Shown here piece by piece: positions 5,888-40,636 of a stretch of DNA of 64,000 nucleotides (position 1 is the stretch's first letter; each line of letters starts with the position of its first letter). The DNA comes from a virus. Taxonomy: Duplodnaviria; Caudoviricetes. The notes under the pieces are model-generated. The model did no database searches. It saw nothing but the letters and a program-made list of their open reading frames with translations, and had not been told where the DNA came from. The position numbers were made by a program, and so were the translations under genes. The stretch lies in IMG/VR virus record IMGVR_UViG_3300027983_002388. One strand, 5' to 3'.

Positions 5888-7066
5888 ATGGCTGATGATA
5901 CTTTTCGTCCAAGACGACCAAACCCGCCAGATGATGAAGATCAGGTAACGGGCGAAGATGAAGGCGGCATGTCCGCTTTGAATATGGCAGAGAAGATGCG
6001 ACAACAGGCGGCTGGAGAGGATAGTCAATCAGATGACAATCCTAAGCTAACTGGCAACTTCAATATTAAGGGGATGGAAAACGCCCCGCCTGAATTCATG
6101 CAAGCACTAAAAGCCGCTCAGGGTGGCCCGCAGCAGAAAGTTCAGCAAGAAACATCCGGTCATGAGCCGAAGCGTGGCTTTGGCCAGATGTCTGGTGGTG
6201 GAGAAGGTCCAGGTTCAGCACCCGCAGCACCAGTCGCCAAGAAGCGTGACGCTGCATCGACAAGCTCAGGCCACTTGAAAGAATTGCTGGAAGGACTGAA
6301 AGGTTCGACCACAATTTATGAAGAGATTGAGTTGCCTTCGAGGGGTCGTTTTTACGACGGCACTGATGGTCCCGCAAACGGAGTTGTTTCTATTCGTCCG
6401 ATGACGGGCGAAGAAGAACAAATTCTGGCAACCCCACGATTCGTTCGTAAGGGACAAGCCATCAACATGATCTTCCAGCGATGCCTCAAGGAACAGTTCC
6501 GTCCCGAACAACTCTTGACCATCGACCGGACCTACATGCTGATTTACCTGCGTGGTATTTCGTATTCACCGAATTACGATGTTGAGGTAAAGTGTCCTGA
6601 ATGTGAAAAGAAGTTCGGAACCACAATTGACCTCAATACGCTATATGTCGAACCGTGTCCTGAAACATATGGGCCACAATTGCAAGATGTATTGCCAACA
6701 ACCAAGCTGCCTTTCTCATATCGGCTTTCAACTGGTCGAGATGAGCAAGAGATCACGGATTACCGTGATCGCCGCATCAAGGCTTTCGGTGACGCCTCTG
6801 CTGACGATACTTTGATCTACAGAACGTCTATGCTGCTTGATGATATCGACGGCTTGACCAATAAGGGCGAACTTCAGATTCTTCTAAAGAATCTACCGAT
6901 CAGCGACGTATCGTATGCACGCAACTGTATCAACGAGCCACCATTTGGCGTTGATACAAATGTAGAAATTGTTTGCCCTAGCTGTCTACAGGACTTTGAA
7001 GTTGATCTTCCACTGGAGGCCAATTTTTTCTTCCCTCGACGGAAGAAAAACAAGACCCAAGCATAG
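5888..7066 (+). CDS. Baseplate hub / tail assembly chaperone, T4 gp26-like, with long low-complexity N-terminus
   Basis: IELPSRGRFY...IRPMTGEEEQIL...L..IDRTYMLIYLRGISY...CPEC...CPSC. Confidence 0.75.
   Translation: MADDTFRPRRPNPPDDEDQVTGEDEGGMSALNMAEKMRQQAAGEDSQSDDNPKLTGNFNIKGMENAPPEFMQALKAAQGGPQQKVQQETSGHEPKRGFGQMSGGGEGPGSAPAAPVAKKRDAASTSSGHLKELLEGLKGSTTIYEEIELPSRGRFYDGTDGPANGVVSIRPMTGEEEQILATPRFVRKGQAINMIFQRCLKEQFRPEQLLTIDRTYMLIYLRGISYSPNYDVEVKCPECEKKFGTTIDLNTLYVEPCPETYGPQLQDVLPTTKLPFSYRLSTGRDEQEITDYRDRRIKAFGDASADDTLIYRTSMLLDDIDGLTNKGELQILLKNLPISDVSYARNCINEPPFGVDTNVEIVCPSCLQDFEVDLPLEANFFFPRRKKNKTQA
7024..7030 (+). other. Candidate -1 slippery heptamer T TTT TTC
   Basis: In the 0 frame of the gp26-like ORF; the -1 frame is open into the downstream ORF at 7069. 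Confidence 0.6.
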
Positions 7067-7068
7067 AA

Positions 7069-7263
7069 ATGTGGAAGGGACTAGCGGAAGAAATATTCTT
7101 CTTCCAATATCACTTACACTTAGCTATGTCAGGGTCAATGAGTCTGCCGATCAATCTGCGAAAATGGATGATCGAACGCTTTATCGAGCAAAAAGAAAAA
7201 GAAAACGAGGCAATGGAAGCCTCACGCAGAAAGGCGCAGTCTCAATCAAAGTCAAGGCGATAA
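7069..7263 (+). CDS. gp51-like small ORF / frameshift (GT-type) extension of the gp26-like gene
   Basis: EEIFFFQYHLH...LPINLRKWMIERF; lies in the -1 frame with no evident SD. Confidence 0.6.
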   Translation: MWKGLAEEIFFFQYHLHLAMSGSMSLPINLRKWMIERFIEQKEKENEAMEASRRKAQSQSKSRR

Positions 7264-7266
7264 AAA

Positions 7267-8010
7267 ATGGCAACAAAAGAACGATACCAAAATCCTACTT
7301 GCGGTGACTCAGTAAATCTTCGGTTGTTTACTTACAACAGCAACAACCGAAGAGACGTGCAATCTATCGAGAAAGTGGAAATTTACACTTATGACGATAC
7401 CTTCAGGTCTGCTGATAATCCTCAAGGAATGAGATTGGTTCAAACCGTTCTCGGCACAGATGTCGTACAAGAAGCAACAGGTCAATATTTGTTACAGCTA
7501 ACGGTTTCAAACCCGTTGTATACAATCGGCTCATATAGAGACGTTTGGTCTGTTGTCTTTGAGGACGGCGAATGTGCAACTGCTCAGGTTGCGAACGACT
7601 TTCAGATTTATTCTGATTTGTGGTTCACAACACCAATCCCGCCAATATATGATTTTAATTTTAACTTCCGTCCCAATAAAGTCCGTAAAGGATCAAAGCG
7701 ATATTTGCTGATCCAGGTCGTACCGAATGTTCCACGAGGGTCCGAGATTCTTCCCTACTATGAAAATCTCGCCATAGTCTCAGATTTACGGGTATCTATA
7801 GAACTTGCCTGCGGGGAGTGTGTCCCGGCAGAGCAAGACCTACGCCTGATAGAAGATCGGACCCTTGTGAACTATCGTGAAAAAGGTTACGCATATTTCT
7901 TCCTTGATACGGAAGAATATGATGAAGGCATTTACAATATTTGGTTTGAACTTGCCTTTGGCGAAAACGTGTTCGTGTCTGACAAAAACTCTTTCCAGGT
8001 ATACAGCTAA
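7267..8010 (+). CDS. Putative virion structural protein (beta-rich)
   Basis: Co-oriented with baseplate genes; beta-strand-rich composition. Confidence 0.5.
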   Translation: MATKERYQNPTCGDSVNLRLFTYNSNNRRDVQSIEKVEIYTYDDTFRSADNPQGMRLVQTVLGTDVVQEATGQYLLQLTVSNPLYTIGSYRDVWSVVFEDGECATAQVANDFQIYSDLWFTTPIPPIYDFNFNFRPNKVRKGSKRYLLIQVVPNVPRGSEILPYYENLAIVSDLRVSIELACGECVPAEQDLRLIEDRTLVNYREKGYAYFFLDTEEYDEGIYNIWFELAFGENVFVSDKNSFQVYS

Positions 8011-8531
8011 TGGCCGTTTTTAATCTTCCCGATGAACCAGATTCGCCAGCAGGAAAGGCAATCCAAACTGCATTGGCACCATCAGCAGAAAAGCTGGCAT
8101 CTCTAGTGATGCCAAATAAATTTCAGTTGGTATTCAAATCAGACCCATATTTGGGCGATAGTGTTCATGGCTTGATACTTGACCTGGGCCGCAAAGAATT
8201 GATTTTCAACACAATAGAAAACGGTCAATACAATTGGATTGACTGGCTTTTAGAAGTGCCTGAAGATGAAGTTGTTACGTTATTCTTTTTAGACGAAGAC
8301 AATAAACACAGGTGTATATTGGTCATGGAAGGACTCTATGTGTTTGAACATACTTGTGCAATGAATAATACACAGAACGCTTATGGCATCGACTCGACTG
8401 AAAATCTCGAACACAAAGTAACAGTGCAATTCACCAATATTGAAAGACTACATCCAGAAGGGCAGGGGAAAAGTTTGAAAAAAGTGGTCAGAAGACCCAA
8501 GGAGAATGTTGATCGCCAAAGACAAGAGTAA
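8010..8531 (+). CDS. Hypothetical protein, possibly a degenerate tail-tube-like fold
   Basis: ORF; NKFQLVF...VTLFFLD...VTVQF spacing weakly resembles gp19. Confidence 0.4.
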   Translation: MAVFNLPDEPDSPAGKAIQTALAPSAEKLASLVMPNKFQLVFKSDPYLGDSVHGLILDLGRKELIFNTIENGQYNWIDWLLEVPEDEVVTLFFLDEDNKHRCILVMEGLYVFEHTCAMNNTQNAYGIDSTENLEHKVTVQFTNIERLHPEGQGKSLKKVVRRPKENVDRQRQE

Positions 8532-28577: not shown

Positions 28578-29636
28578 TCACTCCACTTTTTGACAAATTT
28601 TGCGACCGATACGCAGAAGCTCATCTCGATCAAGATTTTTGGGGCCAATCTCATCAACATACTTACCAAGCATTTCATCGCCCCTGTATAAGATAGCTTT
28701 GGCATCTTGGATTACATGCTGATCCATAATCTTTTTTTGCTGCTTGATCTCCAAGCTGCCCATATTATTGGATTCCAGCATCTCTTTTCGCAGGGCAACC
28801 AAATCGGTTGCTCCAATATCGTCAACTTTAATACGAATGAAATTTTTGTTCAAATCGTATTTGTCTTTATCCTTGATGCTGATGACCAAGTGAACGGGAC
28901 TGAAATCATTTGGGATATATGTCTTCTTGCCAGTTTTACCATTGAAAGCAATGATGTGCTTCTTCTGGAATGCTTCACCGAAAGAAAGCTCCAAAGGAGA
29001 ACCAACATATTCGACCTTCTCATTAACCCGTTGTTCGGCATGGTAGTGACCAAGGAACGTGTGTTTATAATGATCGAATAAACTAACGCCCACACTCACC
29101 ATATCGCCGTCATGTTCGATGGAAATATCAGACTGATGGGTGCCATGCAGGATAGCTCCGTCAATAGCAATATGTCCTAACGCATATTCTGGGCTTCCTG
29201 GTTTTTCCTTGAGTTCTTCCAACGTGGTAATCGGATTGTGTGTGAACGGAATAAAGTCCCAATTCGATCCAGCGATATTGATACGCTCAGGACGAGCGAT
29301 AATCTGAACGCCGGGCAGTGCCGATAAAGGAATGACGCTGCTGACCGAGGTTTTATCGTTGTACCAAAGATCGTGATTTCCCAGCAGCAAATATAGTTTG
29401 AATTTGCCGCCCCTCAGTCGCTTCTCCAAAGTCTCGAAAGCTCTTTGGTAGGTGTAGACCTCGATTTTTTGACGGTCGTGATATAGATCGCCACCAAATA
29501 GAATATTGGTTATTCCTCGTTGTTCAGCAACGTCAAATACCCAATCAAGTGCCTTTAGGCAATCTTCCAATCGACCATTGGATCGCTTGTGCGGGTGAAC
29601 GTGAATATCGCTAAAGATCAAAACTTCATCATTCAT
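28578..29636 (-). CDS. sbcD: SbcD/Mre11 (gp47-like) nuclease
   Basis: FSDIH, GGDLYH, GNHD, GHYH. Confidence 0.9.
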   Translation of the reverse strand: MNDEVLIFSDIHVHPHKRSNGRLEDCLKALDWVFDVAEQRGITNILFGGDLYHDRQKIEVYTYQRAFETLEKRLRGGKFKLYLLLGNHDLWYNDKTSVSSVIPLSALPGVQIIARPERINIAGSNWDFIPFTHNPITTLEELKEKPGSPEYALGHIAIDGAILHGTHQSDISIEHDGDMVSVGVSLFDHYKHTFLGHYHAEQRVNEKVEYVGSPLELSFGEAFQKKHIIAFNGKTGKKTYIPNDFSPVHLVISIKDKDKYDLNKNFIRIKVDDIGATDLVALRKEMLESNNMGSLEIKQQKKIMDQHVIQDAKAILYRGDEMLGKYVDEIGPKNLDRDELLRIGRKICQKVE

Positions 29637-29920
29637 ACCGATTCTCCGAGCAGTTCGAGAAGGACATCGCCATGACAGAGTTTGGGACGACACCAGCAAC
29701 CCAGACGTTTTCCACGAAGGTCTTCAAGCGATGCCATTAAATCAGGTTGGGTCTTTATCCATTCCCGATATTTGTCAATGGCTTCATAACGGGTCGCAAC
29801 TTTTGTCTCGGCCAAGCAACTTGGTTTATGACTGAAAGGGTTGCCCCAGATTGAAGGTCGTCCGATATAAACGTCGTACTCATCACGACCGCAGTGTACG
29901 ATACTGGTTTTCATGTTCAT
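29633..29920 (-). CDS. DUF4326-family protein
   Basis: DVYIGRPS.WGNPF...LRGKRLGCWC.P..CHGDVL. Confidence 0.8.
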   Translation of the reverse strand: MNMKTSIVHCGRDEYDVYIGRPSIWGNPFSHKPSCLAETKVATRYEAIDKYREWIKTQPDLMASLEDLRGKRLGCWCRPKLCHGDVLLELLGESV

Positions 29921-30005
29921 GGGCGTATTGTGCCTAAACCAGTGCGTTCAATCAAGACAAGATAAAAAAATAGACGACTCGTAAATAGTCGTCTATAAAG
30001 CAGAT

Positions 30006-30323
30006 TTATTGATTTTGCATATCGGGCTTATCGGGCTTTTCCTGTCCGTCTCCACTGAGAACTCTTTCCAAAACGTCCCAGACGTTGTATGCTTTGAGCT
30101 TCTGAGGAGCGGTGCCACCAGCCGGTGCGCCAGGCATCCCTCCCATCGGTGGAGCGCCCATGCCCATTCCACCACCCATCGGTGGCATTCCACCCATTGG
30201 GGGAGCGCCGCCAGCAGGCAGTAATGCCCCAGGACCACTGATTCCACCAGCCCCGCCCGGTGGAGGCGGTGGTGGTGCAGCTTCGTTCAGTTTGAATTCG
30301 AGAAATTTCTTGAAGGTATTCAT
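30006..30323 (-). CDS. Pro/Gly/Met-rich protein with CTS-like N-terminus (MNTFKKFLEFKLNE)
   Basis: SD TAAGGTG before ATG; low-complexity body. Confidence 0.6.
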   Translation of the reverse strand: MNTFKKFLEFKLNEAAPPPPPPGGAGGISGPGALLPAGGAPPMGGMPPMGGGMGMGAPPMGGMPGAPAGGTAPQKLKAYNVWDVLERVLSGDGQEKPDKPDMQNQ

Positions 30324-30463
30324 CACCTTATGTAGTGACGAAAATCGGAAATTTCCCAAAAGGATCGAACCTGAATCGTTTTTGACTCTCTAAGGTATCT
30401 GAAGCCAAGTCGCTGGAAGTCTCGGAACCGACAAGTGCGTTTTCAACTTTGTCGAGAAGTAAC

Positions 30464-30492
30464 TTTACAAGTGACAAAAGCCGTGGTATGAT
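30464..30492 (+). promoter_or_regulatory. Promoter TTTACA-N12-CGTGG-TATGAT
   Basis: Matches window consensus; no credible ORF downstream. Confidence 0.7.
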
Positions 30493-30498
30493 ACCAAC

Positions 30499-30780
30499 GT
30501 CCTGATCGGACAACGCTTCTTGTGAGTCTGGGCGTGTGGGGCTTGCCTCATTATCAGACGAGGGTGGGAGTCAACCTAATGACCGGGTTTTAATGTTTGC
30601 ACCAAAGCATAAGCAAGCGTCGGCTTCTATGGGTTGTCTGTGCCGTAATCAGACCACCCGGCTTCTATGGGTTGTCTGTGCCGTAATCAGACCACCCGGC
30701 TTCTATGGGTTGTCTGTGCCGTAATCAGACCACCCGGCTTCTATGGGTTGTCTGTGCCTCAATCAGACCACCCGCCTGCG
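30499..30780 (+). ncRNA. Candidate structured ncRNA of unknown class
   Basis: Follows a promoter; no credible ORF; GCTTGC/GCAAGC and ACGCTT/AAGCGT pairings; ends in hairpin repeats. Confidence 0.4.
30621..30772. repeat. Four tandem copies of a 38-bp hairpin unit CGGCTTCTATGGGTTGTCTGTGCCGTAATCAGACCACC
   Basis: Copies at 30621, 30659, 30697, 30735 (last has CTC for CGT); no spacers. Confidence 0.95.
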
Positions 30781-30806
30781 AGTTGAATAAAATTTCAGAT
30801 TCCGTC

Positions 30807-30835
30807 TTGAAATTTTGTTTCGAGACGACTACTAT
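30807..30835 (+). promoter_or_regulatory. Sigma70-type promoter TTGAAA-N17-TACTAT upstream of the tRNA array
   Basis: Consensus boxes with 17-bp spacer. Confidence 0.65.
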
Positions 30836-30883
30836 AACAGACACAAGCGAACAAAACGTCCGCACAATCAATTGGAGTTCATC

Positions 30884-30964
30884 GTGAACACTTTATCCCT
30901 CAGTCTATCGCTCTCTTATTCCTTGCTATCATTTAGCAACGGAGAAGGCTGCGTCCTGACTTAA
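30884..30964 (+). CDS. Putative attenuator leader peptide MNTLSLSLSLSYSLLSFSNGEGCVLT
   Basis: GGAG SD at 30874-30877, GTG start; 7 Leu + 7 Ser codons. Confidence 0.65.
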   Translation: MNTLSLSLSLSYSLLSFSNGEGCVLT

Positions 30965-31037
30965 AGGGACAATTGTGGGGAAGAATAAACCCCCGGCAGC
31001 TTTCTCCAGAAATGGAAAAGCTGCCGGGGGTTTTTTT
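30941..31037 (+). promoter_or_regulatory. Antiterminator/terminator switch (attenuator)
   Basis: GGAGAAGGCTGC (30941-30952) pairs with GCAGCTTTCTCC (30996-31007), excluding the terminator. Confidence 0.7.
30990..31037 (+). terminator. Intrinsic terminator directly before the first tRNA
   Basis: CCCCCGGCAGCTTT/AAAGCTGCCGGGGG stem, GAAA loop, T7 tract. Confidence 0.9.
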
Positions 31038-31042
31038 AGTTT

Positions 31043-31132
31043 GGGAGTAAGGCGACTGCTGGTTGTGTCGCACCTGCCTGTAAAGCAGGGCCTACAAGGT
31101 AAACATCGCAGGTTCAATTCCTGCTGCTCCCA
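31043..31132 (+). tRNA. tRNA-Tyr(GTA)
   Basis: GGGAGTA/TGCTCCC acceptor; CCTGC-CTGTAAA-GCAGG; GCAGG-TTCAATT-CCTGC; long variable arm. Confidence 0.85.
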
Positions 31133-31204
31133 CTGTGTACGTCAGATTTATTGTTGCGTCCTCACTCTTGTAGTGCGGAGGCAACTAATGAAAGAATAAC
31201 AAAC

Positions 31205-31276
31205 GGATCGGTAGCTGAGATGGAGTATCGCTGGCCTGAAAAGCCGGAGACGAGGATTCGAGCGACTCCCGATCCA
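31205..31276 (+). tRNA. tRNA-Phe(GAA), degenerate D and T stems
   Basis: GGATCGG/CCGATCC acceptor; CTGGC-CTGAAAA-GCCGG; imperfect T stem. Confidence 0.55.
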
Positions 31277-31288
31277 CTGAAAGGAACA

Positions 31289-31849
31289 ATGATGGAACCG
31301 ATTTATTTGCCATCTGCTGGCAACGATATGAGCAGAGTGGTTAACTCTATTTTCGATGAAACGAAGGGTCTTGAATGGCTGACCGAGAGGTCTGCCCGGA
31401 AAGAATACTTCATGTCCACGAAAGACAGAGAGTATAGCTACGGGAACAGACATCAAGGCGACGTAATGTACAGAAGCAAGCCATTCAGTTTTTTAGTGGG
31501 ACAGTTTATGGAGTACATAAACGAAACACAGAAATCTGAATTCAATGTTTGTTTTCTGAACCGCTACGAAAACGAACAACAGCACCTTGGATGGCACGCT
31601 GATGATTTTCCGGGAATGAGAGCCGATCAGTCAATCGCCGTGTTGTCGTTGGGAGCAGAACGGGAAATATGGTGGAAGGAAAAATCCTTCAAAGGAATTA
31701 TTCCACCAGAAAATAAACAACTGTTGGAACACGGCAGCATATGGATTATGCCTGTTGGATTTCAAGATGTTTATCTTCACAAAATTCCAAAACATGGAAA
31801 GCCTTGTGGAGAAAGGATCAGTTTGACATTCAGAAGTTTTGTTGATTGA
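31289..31849 (+). CDS. alkB: AlkB-family 2OG-Fe(II) dioxygenase
   Basis: LNRY...GWHAD...SLG...H.IPK...RISLTFR; true start after tRNA-Phe. Confidence 0.9.
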   Translation: MMEPIYLPSAGNDMSRVVNSIFDETKGLEWLTERSARKEYFMSTKDREYSYGNRHQGDVMYRSKPFSFLVGQFMEYINETQKSEFNVCFLNRYENEQQHLGWHADDFPGMRADQSIAVLSLGAEREIWWKEKSFKGIIPPENKQLLEHGSIWIMPVGFQDVYLHKIPKHGKPCGERISLTFRSFVD

Positions 31850-31946
31850 CGGTAGAAGTCTGTATGTTGTCCACCGGCTTGCCGAGTTCAACGGGACTCT
31901 GAGCTAATGACTCAGACGAAAGATTGATGCTCCGATCAACAAAAAT

Positions 31947-32021
31947 GGCACGGTGATGCAATTTGGCAGACATCTCACGCTTAGAACGTGGGTTCTGTGG
32001 GTTCGAGTCCCACCCGTGTCA
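31947..32021 (+). tRNA. tRNA-Leu(TAG), short variable loop
   Basis: GGCACGG/CCGTGTC; TCACG-CTTAGAA-CGTGG; GTGGG-TTCGAGT-CCCAC. Confidence 0.85.
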
Positions 32022-32037
32022 CTTTCCTGGAAAACAA

Positions 32038-32123
32038 GGGTTCTGTTCCTCATGCCTGACTGTAAATCAGGTGACAAAAAATTTTGAGGCGGCTGTCGAG
32101 GGGTTCAACTCCCTCAGAACCCA
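32038..32123 (+). tRNA. Non-canonical tRNA-Tyr(GTA)-like RNA lacking a D arm
   Basis: GGGTTCT/AGAACCC; CCTGA-CTGTAAA-TCAGG; only ~9 nt where the D arm should be; 25-nt variable region. Confidence 0.6.
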
Positions 32124-32162
32124 CTTCGGCTTTACAGCCGAATTTGATGGTGATAGAATCAT

Positions 32163-32239
32163 GCCCAGGTGATGCAACCTTCGGTAGACATCCGATACTC
32201 AAAATATCGGTTTTACGGGTTCGAGTCCCGTCCTGGGTA
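32163..32239 (+). tRNA. tRNA-Leu(CAA), short variable loop
   Basis: GCCCAGG/CCTGGGT; CCGATA-CTCAAAA-TATCGG; ACGGG-TTCGAGT-CCCGT. Confidence 0.85.
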
Positions 32240-32255
32240 CTTTGCGGAGAATGTG

Positions 32256-32786
32256 ATGGAAGAGAAATGCACGGAGTTGACTCTCGAACAATGTGAATTT
32301 GCTTGCAAGATGGTTTGCCAGTGGATGAATATTTGCGAGGACAATAAGCGTGGATCAAGTTCGGCTGATGTCGATCATTCTGCCCTTTTGCGAAGGATGT
32401 TGATGGGTGGGACGGTTCATAAAAATCCTCCACCAAAAAGATTCAGTTATCCTTGTTGGGGATTGGTTGAACAAGAAGAGATCGAAATCCAAGACATGCA
32501 CGAATATGACATAGACATTGAAGGCATGAAAGGAACTGTGGTTGTCGATCAACATCGTGAATACGAATGGGTGGATAAAGAAAATAAAATCATCAAACAC
32601 ACACGATTGGGCATTGAGTATCAATATTCCGAACGTGAAGTAACACCAGATGCCAGACGTTTACGAAAGGGTTTGAACCCCGAAGACCATAAATACACTG
32701 GTAAATTTTTGAAGAGATTGAATGATCCACCAACAGGAAAAGAAGAAGTGTGGAAAATGCAAGTGAGTGGCTTTTGTTCAGGATGA
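32256..32786 (+). CDS. Hypothetical protein
   Basis: ORF; start placed after the tRNA. Confidence 0.55.
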   Translation: MEEKCTELTLEQCEFACKMVCQWMNICEDNKRGSSSADVDHSALLRRMLMGGTVHKNPPPKRFSYPCWGLVEQEEIEIQDMHEYDIDIEGMKGTVVVDQHREYEWVDKENKIIKHTRLGIEYQYSEREVTPDARRLRKGLNPEDHKYTGKFLKRLNDPPTGKEEVWKMQVSGFCSG

Positions 32787-32940
32787 ACATCAGGCTGACC
32801 CCGGTAGCGTAACTCGCCAATGATCGGTAAGTAACATCATCAAGGAAGATGAAACCACTAAGGAATAAAATGATGAAAAATAATCACGAAAGTTTGGGTA
32901 GCGTCTTTTAAGTGCATTCCGCACTTAGGAGAATCGCTAC

Positions 32941-33393
32941 ATGGCAAAAAAAAGATGGTTCTCGGCATTCCTTCGGTATCCGAGAACAACACAAGAACTA
33001 AGAGCAAACCAAGACCGCAATGATCCCTATGTCCGTGGAAAGAGACGAAACCTTCCCACGGCATGGGACGATCGGTTTGTTCGCAAGCAAAAATCATGGA
33101 AATATCTCGGTCGAGATCATCAATACCGAGAACAAGGTCATGGTTACGAGTGGCATGAATTCCAATACTCGTGGCGTGATACTGAACGGAGAATGATCGC
33201 CAGAACCATCATGGACTGGCTGGAACGACTTGGATGCTTCTACGAAACGATTCGTGGCGGCTTCCGTTGGTTTGGACCAGCATGGTGGATCAAAGGTCAT
33301 TGTCGCTGTTGTTATACACAATTGATTTCTGACACCCAATCCGAAGAGTTCGGAGATTGGTGTCCAAACCCGGACTGTTGCTTCCTTAACTAA
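32941..33393 (+). CDS. Basic hypothetical protein (PRTTQE...LPTAWDD...SWK)
   Basis: ORF with SD; Arg/Trp-rich; C-terminal Cys cluster. Confidence 0.6.
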   Translation: MAKKRWFSAFLRYPRTTQELRANQDRNDPYVRGKRRNLPTAWDDRFVRKQKSWKYLGRDHQYREQGHGYEWHEFQYSWRDTERRMIARTIMDWLERLGCFYETIRGGFRWFGPAWWIKGHCRCCYTQLISDTQSEEFGDWCPNPDCCFLN

Positions 33394-33470
33394 GAGAAAA
33401 ACCATGAACAAATTCACTCAAATCCTTGGACTCATCAAACCTATTACCCAAACCCATTATGGAGGGAACG

Positions 33471-33770
33471 ATGAGAAGGTGGAACGAGGATTACAAGATC
33501 ACTCTGCGTGAGTGGAAAAAGCACCGTCGCTCTCATGTTGAGAGTAACAAAAGCTGGATAAATCGCATCGGAGTCAGCGCCTATGTCGTTGATTGTGAGC
33601 GTGATGAACAAAAAGGTCGATTCCGTAAGAAAGACGCTTTCGATTGTGGCAATACGCAGTGCAGAATTTGTCACAGCGACAAGTATCCCAAGCGGGAAAA
33701 ACACGAACACGAATTGAAGTCCGATGTGGACTTCAAAGAACAACTCAAAGAGTTGCGTGGTGAAGAGTAA
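33471..33770 (+). CDS. Basic hypothetical protein with CGNTQCRIC Zn motif
   Basis: SD GGAGG; ORF. Confidence 0.6.
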   Translation: MRRWNEDYKITLREWKKHRRSHVESNKSWINRIGVSAYVVDCERDEQKGRFRKKDAFDCGNTQCRICHSDKYPKREKHEHELKSDVDFKEQLKELRGEE

Positions 33771-33804
33771 AAGAAGACGAAGGTTTGAAAAAGCCTTCGT
33801 TTGA

Positions 33805-33881
33805 GTCCAAGTAGGCAAACCTCCGGCAAAGCCGCCAGATCGAGAGTCTGGTGTTTGTGGGTTCGACTCCCACCTTGGACA
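33805..33881 (+). tRNA. tRNA-Leu(GAG), short variable loop, atypical anticodon loop (TC-GAG-AG)
   Basis: GTCCAAG/CTTGGAC; CCAGA/TCTGG; GTGGG-TTCGACT-CCCAC. Confidence 0.75.
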
Positions 33882-33958
33882 TTTTCTAAATCCTGTTCAA
33901 CAATCAACGAGAATTGGGAGTGTCAGACAATGCAGTTAGAAAACGGCAGTTAGAAAAC

Positions 33959-34032
33959 GGCTCAGTAGGCAATCGGCAGACCACCCAGGCTTAAACCCAG
34001 GGATGCTGTGAGTTCAAATCTCACCTGAGCCA
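33959..34032 (+). tRNA. tRNA-Leu(TAA), short variable loop
   Basis: GGCTCAG/CTGAGCC; loop CTTAAAC; GTGAG-TTCAAAT-CTCAC; one A-A mismatch in the anticodon stem. Confidence 0.8.
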
Positions 34033-34047
34033 CTTGATTTTTAATAC

Positions 34048-34129
34048 GGCTTTGTGGTGAAATTGGCAAACGCACAGCACTCAAAATGCTGCGTCGAAAG
34101 ACTTGTGGGTTCGAGTCCCACCAAAGCCA
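34048..34129 (+). tRNA. tRNA-Leu(CAA), canonical long variable arm
   Basis: GGCTTTG/CAAAGCC; CAGCA-CTCAAAA-TGCTG. Confidence 0.92.
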
Positions 34130-34247
34130 CTGTTTCGATTTCTGGATCTGGCTCTTACTCGTTGTGAGTAGAAACACCTTTTTTTGGTGGGGTTATAGAA
34201 GTCAAACCTCCAACGGTGATCTCGTAAAGATCACAGGAGAAAGTAAA

Positions 34248-35420
34248 GTGAAGAAAGTCCACATCAATGTCGGAACGATTGGTCACATTGACCACGGGAA
34301 GACGACTCTGACAGCAGCAATTCTCGCTGTTCAGTCCGAGAAGGGTTACGCAAAAAAGAAAGCATACGGCGACATCGCCAAGGGCGGCACCGTTCGTGAC
34401 GTTACCAAAACGGTAACGATCACCACGTCGCACGTTGAGTATGAGACGGATACCCGTCACTATGCTCACATTGACTGCCCCGGTCACGCCGACTATGTAA
34501 AAAATATGATTACCGGGGCTGCTCAAATGGACGGCGCTGTATTGCTCGTCAATGCAGCAGACGGTCCTATGCCTCAGACGAAAGAGCATATTCTGCTCGC
34601 TCGTCAGGTGGGCGTGCCGGATATTGTAGTATTCCTCAATAAGTGCGATCTTGTCAAAGACGAAGAATTGCTGGAACTGGTCGAGATGGAAACAAGAGAC
34701 TTGCTGACGAAGTATGGCTTCGACGGCGAGAAGACTCCGTTTATCCGTGGAGCAGCAAAACCTGCCTTGGATAATCCTGCTGATCCCGCAGCAAGCAAGT
34801 GTATTGTAGAATTGTTGGCGGCTCTGGATTCTTATATTCCTGACCCCAGCCGTTCTATCGACCGTCCCTTCTTGATGCCCGTCGAAGGTGTTCACAATAT
34901 CGAAGGTCGTGGCTGCGTAGTCACGGGCAAGATCGAGCAAGGAACCATCACGGTCGGAACCAAAGTTGAAATCCTTGGGTTGACTGATATTCTGGAGTCA
35001 GTTGTCACCAGCGTCGAGGCTTTCAATAAGCAACTGGAATATGGAGAAGCTGGACAGAATGTCGGTTTGCTGCTGAGAGGCATCAAGGCCGATCAAGTTC
35101 AGCGTGGACAGGTTGTGGCACAACCACGAAGCATCAAGCCTCACACCAAGTTCAAGAGCGAAATTTACGTCTTGGGCAAGGATGAGGGCGGGCGTCACAC
35201 CCCGATCTTCAATGGTTACAAGCCACAGTTCTTCTTCAGAACTACCAACGTCACCGGCCTTGTCCAAATGCCGGAAGGAATTGAGTTGGTCATGCCGGGC
35301 GAGAACACTTGCCTGTTTATCACCCTGGATAAGCCGATTGCTATCGAAAAAGGTAGTCACTTCGCCATTCGTGAGGGTGGTATGACAGTCGGTTCTGGCG
35401 TCGTGACGGAATTGCTGTAA
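34248..35420 (+). CDS. tuf: Elongation factor Tu (Planctomycetota-type switch I)
   Basis: [20 protein letters not shown]; GTG start with GGAGA SD. Confidence 0.97.
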
Positions 35421-40593: not shown

Positions 40594-40636
40594 GAGCATG
40601 TCGCCGACGAAGGCTTAGGCGACATGCTCATTTTTT
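40594..40636 (+). terminator. Intrinsic terminator after the rRNA-mimic RNA
   Basis: GAGCATGTCGCC/GGCGACATGCTC + T6. Confidence 0.85.

Follow-up and report, generated by a model that had tools for sequence, protein, structure and literature searches.

A putative leader-peptide attenuator at the head of the tRNA and EF-Tu genes of a tailed phage

Introduction

The leader-peptide attenuators of enterobacteria include trpL, hisL, leuL and pheL, and some are multivalent, such as the leaders of ilvGMEDA (Ile, Leu and Val codons) and thr (Thr and Ile codons). The pheM leader peptide of the pheST attenuator of Escherichia coli controls phenylalanyl-tRNA synthetase. T-box riboswitches, which carry a specifier loop and a T-box motif, sense uncharged tRNA directly, without a ribosome, upstream of aminoacyl-tRNA synthetase and amino-acid genes. 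In this study, we analyzed a short open reading frame (ORF), and the RNA structures and terminator that go with it, at the start of a tRNA array in a tailed phage (Caudoviricetes; IMG/VR record IMGVR_UViG_3300027983_002388). The stretch of 64,000 nucleotides that was analyzed, hereafter the window, is part of a 98.7-kb phage genome consisting of a single contig. The sequence makes it quite likely that this leader is a ribosome-mediated (leader-peptide) transcription attenuator heading the rightward tRNA and EF-Tu unit.

The reason for which phages have tRNA genes has been a matter of debate for decades, and both codon compensation and the replacement of degraded host tRNAs have been put forward. 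The proposals for phage tRNA genes include evasion of tRNA-targeting defences (PMC10264068, PMC11555353).

Results

Anatomy and codon composition of the leader

The leader cassette lies at a divergent junction. Genes to the left of about 30500, including those for an SbcCD-like nuclease and ribonucleotide reductase, run leftward, and those to the right of it run rightward, with the cassette at the start of the rightward unit. A preliminary description of this DNA had proposed a promoter at 30807-30835, a Shine-Dalgarno (SD) sequence, a 26-codon ORF, a hairpin at 30923-30939, two pairing segments (2 and 3) and a terminator. All of these are present at the coordinates given there (Table 1). The features that define the class at the sequence level were thus found together: a short ORF with a ribosome binding site behind a promoter, control codons, an intrinsic terminator, an antiterminator (2:3) that excludes it, and a 1:2 pairing. 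The extended form of the promoter, CTACTATA, occurs once in the window.

The ORF starts with GTG, and its codon use agrees with what had been claimed: it contains all six Ser codons, five of the six Leu codons (CTT is absent), one TAT (Tyr) and one TTT (Phe). When the control-codon run was scored in each frame, 15/15 codons were Ser, Leu, Tyr or Phe in frame, compared with 7/15 and 5/15 in the two others. These codons make up 25.5% of trinucleotides (background 0.255). Across all six frames of the 98.7-kb genome, a score of at least 13/14 was reached by the leader ORF and one poly-Ser stretch only. Codon diversity was also high, with 13 different codons among the 16 Ser/Leu/Tyr/Phe codons of the ORF against 10.3 expected from the codon usage of the phage (p = 0.024).

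Table 1. Positions in the window of the leader elements and of the genes and signals downstream of them.
Feature	Position	Strand	Remarks
Leader promoter, sigma-70-type	30807-30835	+	TTGAAA (30807), 17 nt, TACTAT (30835); 9/12 consensus matches
Shine-Dalgarno sequence	30874-30877	+	GGAG, 6 nt before the GTG start
Leader ORF	30884-30964	+	26 sense codons and TAA; GTG start; encodes (M/V)NTLSLSLSLSYSLLSFSNGEGCVLT
Control-codon run (segment 1)	30893-30937	+	codons 4-18; all 15 Ser/Leu/Tyr/Phe; 12 different codons (13 in the whole ORF)
1:2 structure	30915-30948	+	core hairpin TTGCTA/TAGCAA at 30923-30939; -16.3 kcal/mol locally
Segment 2	30941-30952	+	GGAGAAGGCTGC; purine-rich 5' antiterminator strand
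Small hairpin	30953-30970	+	GUCCU/AGGGA, stop codon in the loop; inside the antiterminator junction; likewise placed in lineages C and E
GGGG element	30977-30980	+	12 nt past the stop codon; pairs with CCCC at the base of the terminator 5' arm
Intrinsic terminator (segments 3 and 4)	30990-31037	+	GC-rich; stem 30990-31030, then seven U; -38.3 kcal/mol
Segment 3	30996-31007	+	GCAGCTTTCTCC
tRNA-Tyr(GTA)	31043-31133	+	first gene behind the terminator
tRNA-Phe(GAA)-like gene	31205-31276	+	Rfam tRNA only, 36.5 bits; L001 homologue called Phe by ARAGORN
AlkB-like 2OG-Fe(II) oxygenase gene	31292-31849	+	roughly where relatives have four tRNA-Ser and tRNA-Leu(CAG)
tRNA-Leu(TAG)	31947-32022	+
tRNA-Leu(CAA)-like	32163-32239	+
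tRNA-Leu(GAG)	33805-33881	+
tRNA-Leu(TAA)	33959-34033	+
tRNA-Leu(CAA)	34048-34130	+
Phage EF-Tu homologue	34086-35420	+	EF-Tu domains from about 34254
Next strong terminator	40594-40629	+	probably closes the rightward unit headed by the leader

The cassette in related phages

Relatives were found with the EF-Tu gene as the anchor in IMG/VR, on phage contigs of 34 kb to 533 kb. The cassette of promoter, Ser/Leu/Tyr/Phe leader and terminator was located upstream, on the same strand, in 10/10 distinct IMG/VR records with a pure Ser/Leu/Tyr/Phe array beside a related EF-Tu. These ten records represent seven sequence lineages (A-G). The arrays behind the ten leaders contain Ser, Leu, Tyr and Phe tRNAs only, plus one amber-suppressor-like tRNA(CTA) in L004. 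The preliminary description had suggested that the same architecture, with covariation, be looked for upstream of other phage tRNA arrays. The architecture was found in the ten records, but column-wise covariation over all lineages failed because the distant leaders do not align in register, and per-sequence folds were used instead.

The close relatives L001 and L002 (about 85% nucleotide identity) carry the same cassette as the window phage, with which they make up lineage A. Their leader ORF remains in frame despite a 3-nt insertion, which is a Tyr codon, and 5/5 substitutions in the run are synonymous or exchange Ser and Leu. A compensatory change from U-A to C-G at 30924/30938 converts the hairpin TTGCTA/TAGCAA into TCGCTA/TAGCGA. 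The arrays of these relatives, Tyr, Ser(GGA, GCT, CGA, TGA), Leu(CAG, GAG, TAG, TAA, CAA) and Phe, match the four amino acids of the leader, and an isoacceptor is present for each leader codon used.

The distant phages cannot be aligned with the window phage at the DNA level. Each of them has one short ORF scoring 13-14/14 for Ser/Leu/Tyr/Phe codons, followed by a strong terminator. The leader peptides are MHALLSYSLSSLSSLFSEPGETAAVA in lineage B (L005); VNFFSLSLSLFSSSSLFSYSAEGGCTV (record of L004), VNFLSLLSLSLFTLLSSYSTGGGCIV (L006) and MNVFLLSLSSLSGLFYSSGSGCIL (record of L032) in lineage C; MTFSFSSSLLYLYSLSREHDTVMD in lineage D (L007/L008); MRTLLSSLFSLSLLSSLYSDGIGGSV in lineage E (L009); MRSLLSSLSSLFYSLTRG in lineage F (L063); and MQSLFSSLSSLYYSLLSGEE in lineage G (L066). 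The start codon is retained in all lineages. An SD-like site was present at similar spacing in the eight leaders inspected for it, a set that does not include those of L063 and L066. The promoter block TTCGAGAYGACTACTATA, which occurs just once in the window, is kept in several lineages, and the -35, spacer and -10 arrangement is found in the close relatives and in the distant L063, L066, L007 and L005.

We then pooled the runs of the ten leaders. In frame, 152/155 codons (98%) encode Ser, Leu, Tyr or Phe, compared with 46/155 and 50/155 (about 30%) in the two remaining frames, where stops occur as well. AGY and UAY codons are present, and there is no Pro codon (CCN) in any of the ten runs, indicating that the leader is not merely pyrimidine-rich RNA. 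The order of residues is scrambled between lineages while composition and reading frame are kept. Together, the frame-specific composition, the lack of Pro codons and the scrambled order indicate that the conserved property is what a ribosome reads, and not pyrimidine richness or peptide sequence. Moreover, every array anticodon has a cognate leader codon in 10/10 leaders, and codon diversity was above expectation in 5/8 leaders tested (p 0.009-0.043). The occurrence of the cassette with matching arrays in ten records and seven lineages, with frame and composition conserved, supports the attenuator that had been proposed.

At loci with mixed arrays, no such leader was found beside the tRNAs; the remaining 13-14/14 matches there lay at a distance from tRNAs, in frames rich in AT, and the 90 nt inspected contained no evident terminator. 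A generic search for a leader plus terminator was negative at the mixed tRNA clusters of two jumbo phages and at the L003 and L016 loci, although its strict criteria missed the L016 leader, which lacks an SD. The same two jumbo phages do carry the cassette on their Ser/Leu/Tyr/Phe array. A gapped pattern for the A/C-type terminator recovered the records already known together with three false positives of high GC content, and added one new leader, in the record of L032. A single metagenome scan for this terminator type added only near-identical A-lineage copies and one false positive. Searches of IMG/VR with an exact 20-mer of the leader and with the AlkB gene as the anchor gave zero matches each.

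A second, differently composed codon-matched leader was observed at L016 2842-2910 (IMG/VR 3300028841_000141). In the ORF MTGKTTNKMTFTGKGTAVYWDE (leader MTGKTTNKMTFTGKGT...), all four codons for Thr, three for Gly and both for Lys occur together with ATG, and there is no obvious SD. A terminator comes after the ORF, and downstream lies a tRNA array for Met, Thr, Lys and Gly only, around another phage EF-Tu.

Several further observations were made in the relatives. The jumbo phages G001 and G003 (records of L004 and L005) have about 60 tRNA genes each; their Ser/Leu/Tyr/Phe tRNAs form an array of their own beside EF-Tu, and the large clusters inspected in other parts of these genomes (G001 1-40 kb, G003 160-200 kb) contain tRNAs for the other amino acids in mixed order. 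In L004 (IMG/VR 3300049215_000771, 533 kb, jumbo), the tRNA with anticodon CTA is at 6374, inside the Ser/Leu/Tyr/Phe array, and, in the region 7001-8320, a stop codon lies in the stretch upstream of EF-Tu homology; the open frame ends at 7138. Stop-codon recoding is possible in this phage. In the relatives of lineage A and in lineage C, the first protein gene past the leader terminator is a small conserved ORF starting MGWATGYI..KLQ.GETV.F (L001 3439 onward, L006 1530 onward, L108 about 2960 onward). It puts about 1.3 kb between the leader and the first tRNA in lineage C, so that an attenuator there would also control this uncharacterised protein.

Antiterminator and terminator structures

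The whole leader folds with -84 kcal/mol (z = -7.5 against dinucleotide shuffles). In the 1:2 structure, the core hairpin is extended by pairing of the pyrimidine run 30915-30922 with GGAGAAGG (30941-30948). The 12-bp helix between segments 2 and 3, to which the preliminary description had drawn attention, holds 11 Watson-Crick pairs and one G-U pair. Its energy is -23.8 kcal/mol, compared with -12.2 +/- 2.8 for 1000 dinucleotide shuffles, and 0/1000 shuffles were as good. In the window, the 2:3 state (-34.8 kcal/mol) pairs 16.8 of the 19 nucleotides of the terminator 5' arm.

In the predicted fold of the untranslated RNA, the codon run pairs with the purine-rich ORF tail and the region just past the stop codon, and the terminator forms beside it. 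In modelled co-transcriptional snapshots, the 1:2 structure persists until segment 3 is made. Stalling was modelled for each sequence by masking a ribosome inside the run and folding the rest of the RNA. As a result, lineages A, C and E gave one common three-way junction in which nearly all of the terminator 5' arm is paired. The junction consists of an outer helix, in which the ORF tail pairs with the portion of the arm nearest the loop, the stop-codon hairpin, and a GGGG-loop-CCCC hairpin on the base of the arm. The GGGG element is kept in lineages A, B, C and E, with the equivalents GACC/GGUC in L066 and GAGC/GCUC in L007. The counterpart of the junction in L066 is GGAUUGACC, a near copy of the 3' arm of the same terminator, and that in L007 is GUUAUGG plus GAGC.

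The modelled sequestration of the arm in the window fell from 0.88 to about 0.57 once the A site had passed the run, and similar falls were seen in L007 and L009 (lineages A, D and E in all). Sequestration of the 5' arm was above the shuffle mean in 10/10 leaders, with single p values of 0.01-0.03 in lineage A and 0.07-0.32 elsewhere. The preliminary description had let its reading depend on conservation of both the leader ORF and the antiterminator. The ORF is conserved in all lineages, while the modelled antiterminator appears firm in the lineage of the window and suggestive in the other lineages.

The distance from the stop codon to the terminator is 19-33 nt across lineages, each of which has a strong terminator. 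Coupling of the pyrBI type, in which the ribosome physically blocks the terminator, was rejected because of this distance to the terminator arm. A cmscan of 29500-35000 against Rfam (E <= 1) gave no match to a leader family (Leu, His, Thr, Trp) or the T-box, and returned tRNA matches and chance-level matches of CopA and Pseudomon-1 on the terminator, nothing else.

The tRNA array and the gene context

The preliminary description had named Tyr, Phe and Leu tRNAs downstream, and these were recovered as Tyr(GTA), a Phe(GAA)-like gene and Leu(TAG, CAA, GAG, TAA, CAA). The anticodons of Leu(TAG, GAG, TAA, CAA) were assigned by ARAGORN or from the Rfam alignments. The order behind the terminator is tRNA-Tyr, the Phe-like gene, the AlkB-like gene, the five Leu tRNAs and EF-Tu, and ORFs are interspersed among the Leu tRNAs (31947-34130). 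On the plus strand between 30 and 42 kb, there are just two strong terminators, that of the leader, which is the stronger, and the one at 40594-40629. The leader terminator is about 150 nt behind the promoter, at the head and not at the end of a 9.6-kb unit, which is the placement expected of an attenuator.

Four of the Leu-anticodon tRNAs (31947-32022, 32163-32239, 33805-33881 and 33959-34033) are 75-77 nt long with a short variable region, unlike normal bacterial tRNA-Leu, and the same was seen in L001. They may be Leu tRNAs minus the long arm, or may be charged differently. A weak tRNA-like match at 32037-32123 (Rfam tRNA-Sec model, 23 bits) shows, by eye, the anticodon GUA (Tyr) in a CUGUAAA loop, together with a good T arm and a long variable arm, but its D arm is poor. 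This may be a second tRNA-Tyr, of aberrant form, missed by ARAGORN.

The AlkB-like gene is absent from L001 and L002. Its counterpart in L001 (3425-4580) comprises a small ORF (MGWATG...), four tRNA-Ser and tRNA-Leu(CAG). Homologues of AlkB in cultured phages are all distant, the nearest being about 40% identical (large Caulobacter, Xanthomonas and Stenotrophomonas phages). The EF-Tu matches in the cultured-phage search, for example those on Salmonella enterica contigs, resemble bacterial EF-Tu (about 61% identity). For the leader region, the DNA and protein searches gave no relative among cultured phages, and a tractable isolate was not found.

Upstream of the leader, a stronger promoter-like site is present at 30464-30492 (TTTACA, 17 nt with TG, TATGAT). 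It faces an ORF-free region of about 300 nt (30464-30790 in the window), which is about 97% identical in L001 and L002, exceeding the conservation of the adjoining genes, and which has no terminator of its own before that of the leader. The window phage carries a 38-nt unit repeated 4.1 times at 30621-30774, which is found once in the relatives. The region may give rise to a non-coding RNA, or may have a regulatory role that feeds into the leader. When contigs of four runs were compared with the leader region, the only variants found were one carrying 2 extra nucleotides in the terminator loop and some in which the repeat is single-copy.

Discussion

How the switch would work

We infer from the anatomy of the leader that read-through would respond to stalling. 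Transcription would start at the leader promoter, and a ribosome would load at GGAG/GTG and read 15 consecutive codons that sample nearly every codon for Ser, Leu, Tyr and Phe. With fast decoding, the ribosome would arrive at the stop codon and cover segment 2, the stop-codon hairpin and GGGG; alternatively, it would leave, and the run would pair again with segment 2. Either way, the terminator 5' arm would be free, the hairpin of -38 kcal/mol would form, and RNA polymerase would halt 5 nt before tRNA-Tyr. When any of the sampled aminoacyl-tRNAs is scarce, the ribosome would stall in the run (segment 1). Segment 2 and GGGG could then pair with the whole 5' arm as the three-way antiterminator, and the polymerase would go on to transcribe the tRNA genes and the AlkB-like gene, and probably EF-Tu as well. 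The tRNA and EF-Tu genes would then be made, probably, only when ribosomes read Ser, Leu, Tyr and Phe codons slowly.

Such a leader would behave as an OR gate, since a stall at any of about a dozen isoacceptors would open the terminator. The new tRNAs would relieve the stall and close the terminator again, resulting in negative feedback on decoding capacity.

The physiological trigger would be a loss of charged isoacceptors. Ser, Leu and Tyr tRNAs are the bacterial tRNAs with a long variable arm (class II). Cleavage of host tRNAs by anticodon nucleases is, as the trigger, speculation. Defence nucleases are reported to cut tRNA-Tyr, one of them in the variable loop, and phage tRNAs are reported to rescue infection (PMC13096335, PMC11555353, PMC12673091). 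In light of these tRNA-Tyr nucleases and rescuing phage tRNAs, the idea of a depletion sensor seems reasonable by analogy. Bacterial Schlafen nucleases were considered as a class-II-specific trigger and found unsupported, as the one such enzyme characterised so far cuts tRNAs for Lys, Ala and Met (PMC13056530).

Evidence weighing against the attenuator

A number of findings count against this mechanism or limit its reach. Taken one by one, the leaders could well reach full anticodon coverage by chance (p = 0.08-0.73), and the product of the null probabilities for nine non-redundant leaders (about 1.6e-5, treated as independent) overstates independence because the lineages share ancestry. Beyond lineage A and one member of lineage C, the complementarity of the ORF tail to the terminator arm does not reach significance in single leaders (p = 0.14-0.32 in the duplex comparison and 0.07-0.32 in the stalled-ribosome folds). 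Untranslated nascent RNA at equilibrium already prefers the 2:3 pairing once segment 3 is made, so that termination in the absence of translation depends on a kinetic argument. The distal tRNAs and EF-Tu could in part escape control by the attenuator through a promoter-like site at 32131-32159. The genome of the window phage has no tRNA-Ser gene, yet about 40% of the control codons are Ser; the AlkB-like gene stands roughly where the relatives have their tRNA-Ser genes, which explains six Ser codons in the leader of a genome without such genes. Finally, no RNA run was found to contain the phage, whose records come only from freshwater and estuary metagenomes.

Alternative explanations

The alternative that survives best is an attenuator that reports general translation capacity, for example the inactivation of EF-Tu or ribosomes during infection, and not the supply of particular tRNAs, with slowed elongation inducing EF-Tu and tRNAs. 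The EF-Tu gene is in the same rightward unit as the leader, with no strong terminator between, and is next to these arrays in every lineage, as this explanation would predict. A sensor of this kind, however, has no need for a run that is 98% Ser, Leu, Tyr and Phe, with scrambled order and a codon diversity matching the array anticodons. The Met/Thr/Lys/Gly leader before the Met/Thr/Lys/Gly array of another phage (L016) also points to codon-specific sensing. We therefore regard this explanation as unlikely.

We give very little weight to a functional Ser/Leu-rich micropeptide followed by a leaky ordinary terminator, in which the tRNAs would be made by constitutive read-through or from other promoters. 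Conservation of the ORF in every lineage, with an SD-like site in the leaders inspected for it, and recurrence of a C-terminal G-x-G-C motif in lineages A and C are consistent with it. However, the run keeps its composition, which follows the tRNA set, and not its residue order. The G-C codons fall on the RNA segment GGCUGC, which pairs with GCAGC(C/U) of the terminator, so that the constraint is explained at the RNA level. In addition, the gap between the terminator U tract and tRNA-Tyr is only 5 nt and leaves no space for a promoter.

A translation-independent RNA element (processing, stability or small-RNA domain) made of paired pyrimidine and purine strands, with an incidental ORF and a terminator that could end a transcript from 30464-30492, is likewise very unlikely: the long hairpin into which the leader folds and the conserved promoter and ORF-free region just upstream would suit it, but the signal is frame-specific (98% against about 30%, with stops in the other frames), AGY and UAY codons occur and CCN codons do not, every lineage retains the start codon, an SD-like site is present in the leaders checked for it, indels are in frame, and the cassette has a conserved promoter of its own.

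Significance

If the leader is the codon-reading attenuator proposed here, the phage measures tRNA supply and responds to it, and its arrays are predicted to be inducible by depletion of the matching isoacceptors. Leader-peptide attenuation would then extend from metabolic genes to the tRNA pool itself, and the element would be a compact, isoacceptor-resolved sensor of decoding speed. Because it is built of generic bacterial parts (sigma-70-type promoter, SD, intrinsic terminator), it should be testable in laboratory strains.

A wider proposal, which we advance tentatively and with more doubt than belief, is that of a widespread modular circuit for on-demand tRNA replacement in large phages. 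Blocks of tRNA genes, in the present case all the class II tRNA types plus Phe, and EF-Tu would stay silent behind codon-matched leaders until the matching isoacceptors of the host run short, whether through defence nucleases that cleave tRNAs, through infection-induced tRNA loss or otherwise. If this holds, phage tRNA genes would be inducible counter-defence and homeostasis genes, and not constitutive supplements to codon usage.

Comparison with known systems

According to the preliminary description, such a system is not known to have been described for phage tRNA arrays. Full-text literature searches covering phages and cells likewise found no description of leader-peptide control of tRNA genes, in a coverage that leaves out most subscription journals, so that this absence is not proof.

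The phage leader resembles T-box riboswitches in that a choice between terminator and antiterminator would report tRNA status and control translation-related genes. Unlike these, it has an ORF that appears to be translated and gives no T-box match. The likeness to pheM and pheST is one of purpose: in both, leader-peptide attenuation would act on a part of the translation apparatus, and the output would restore decoding of the control codons, which is negative feedback. The product differs, being a synthetase, with one amino acid sensed, in pheST and a tRNA set behind a multivalent leader in the phage.

With the enterobacterial attenuators, the phage leader shares a promoter-proximal short ORF, a run of control codons, three overlapping helices (1:2, 2:3 and 3:4) and an intrinsic terminator. 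More than one amino acid is represented per leader, as in the multivalent examples, and stalling is expected to favour the antiterminator. There is no sequence similarity to the enterobacterial leaders (no Rfam leader family at E <= 1). In contrast to those leaders, the phage leader is a viral element that would sense four amino acids, and its targets would be tRNA genes, EF-Tu and an AlkB-like gene instead of biosynthetic enzymes. Because almost all synonymous codons occur in it one or two times, it would probe individual isoacceptors and not one amino-acid pool. By analogy, the phage leader may be described as a multivalent attenuator of the trp/ilv type whose regulated product is a set of tRNAs.

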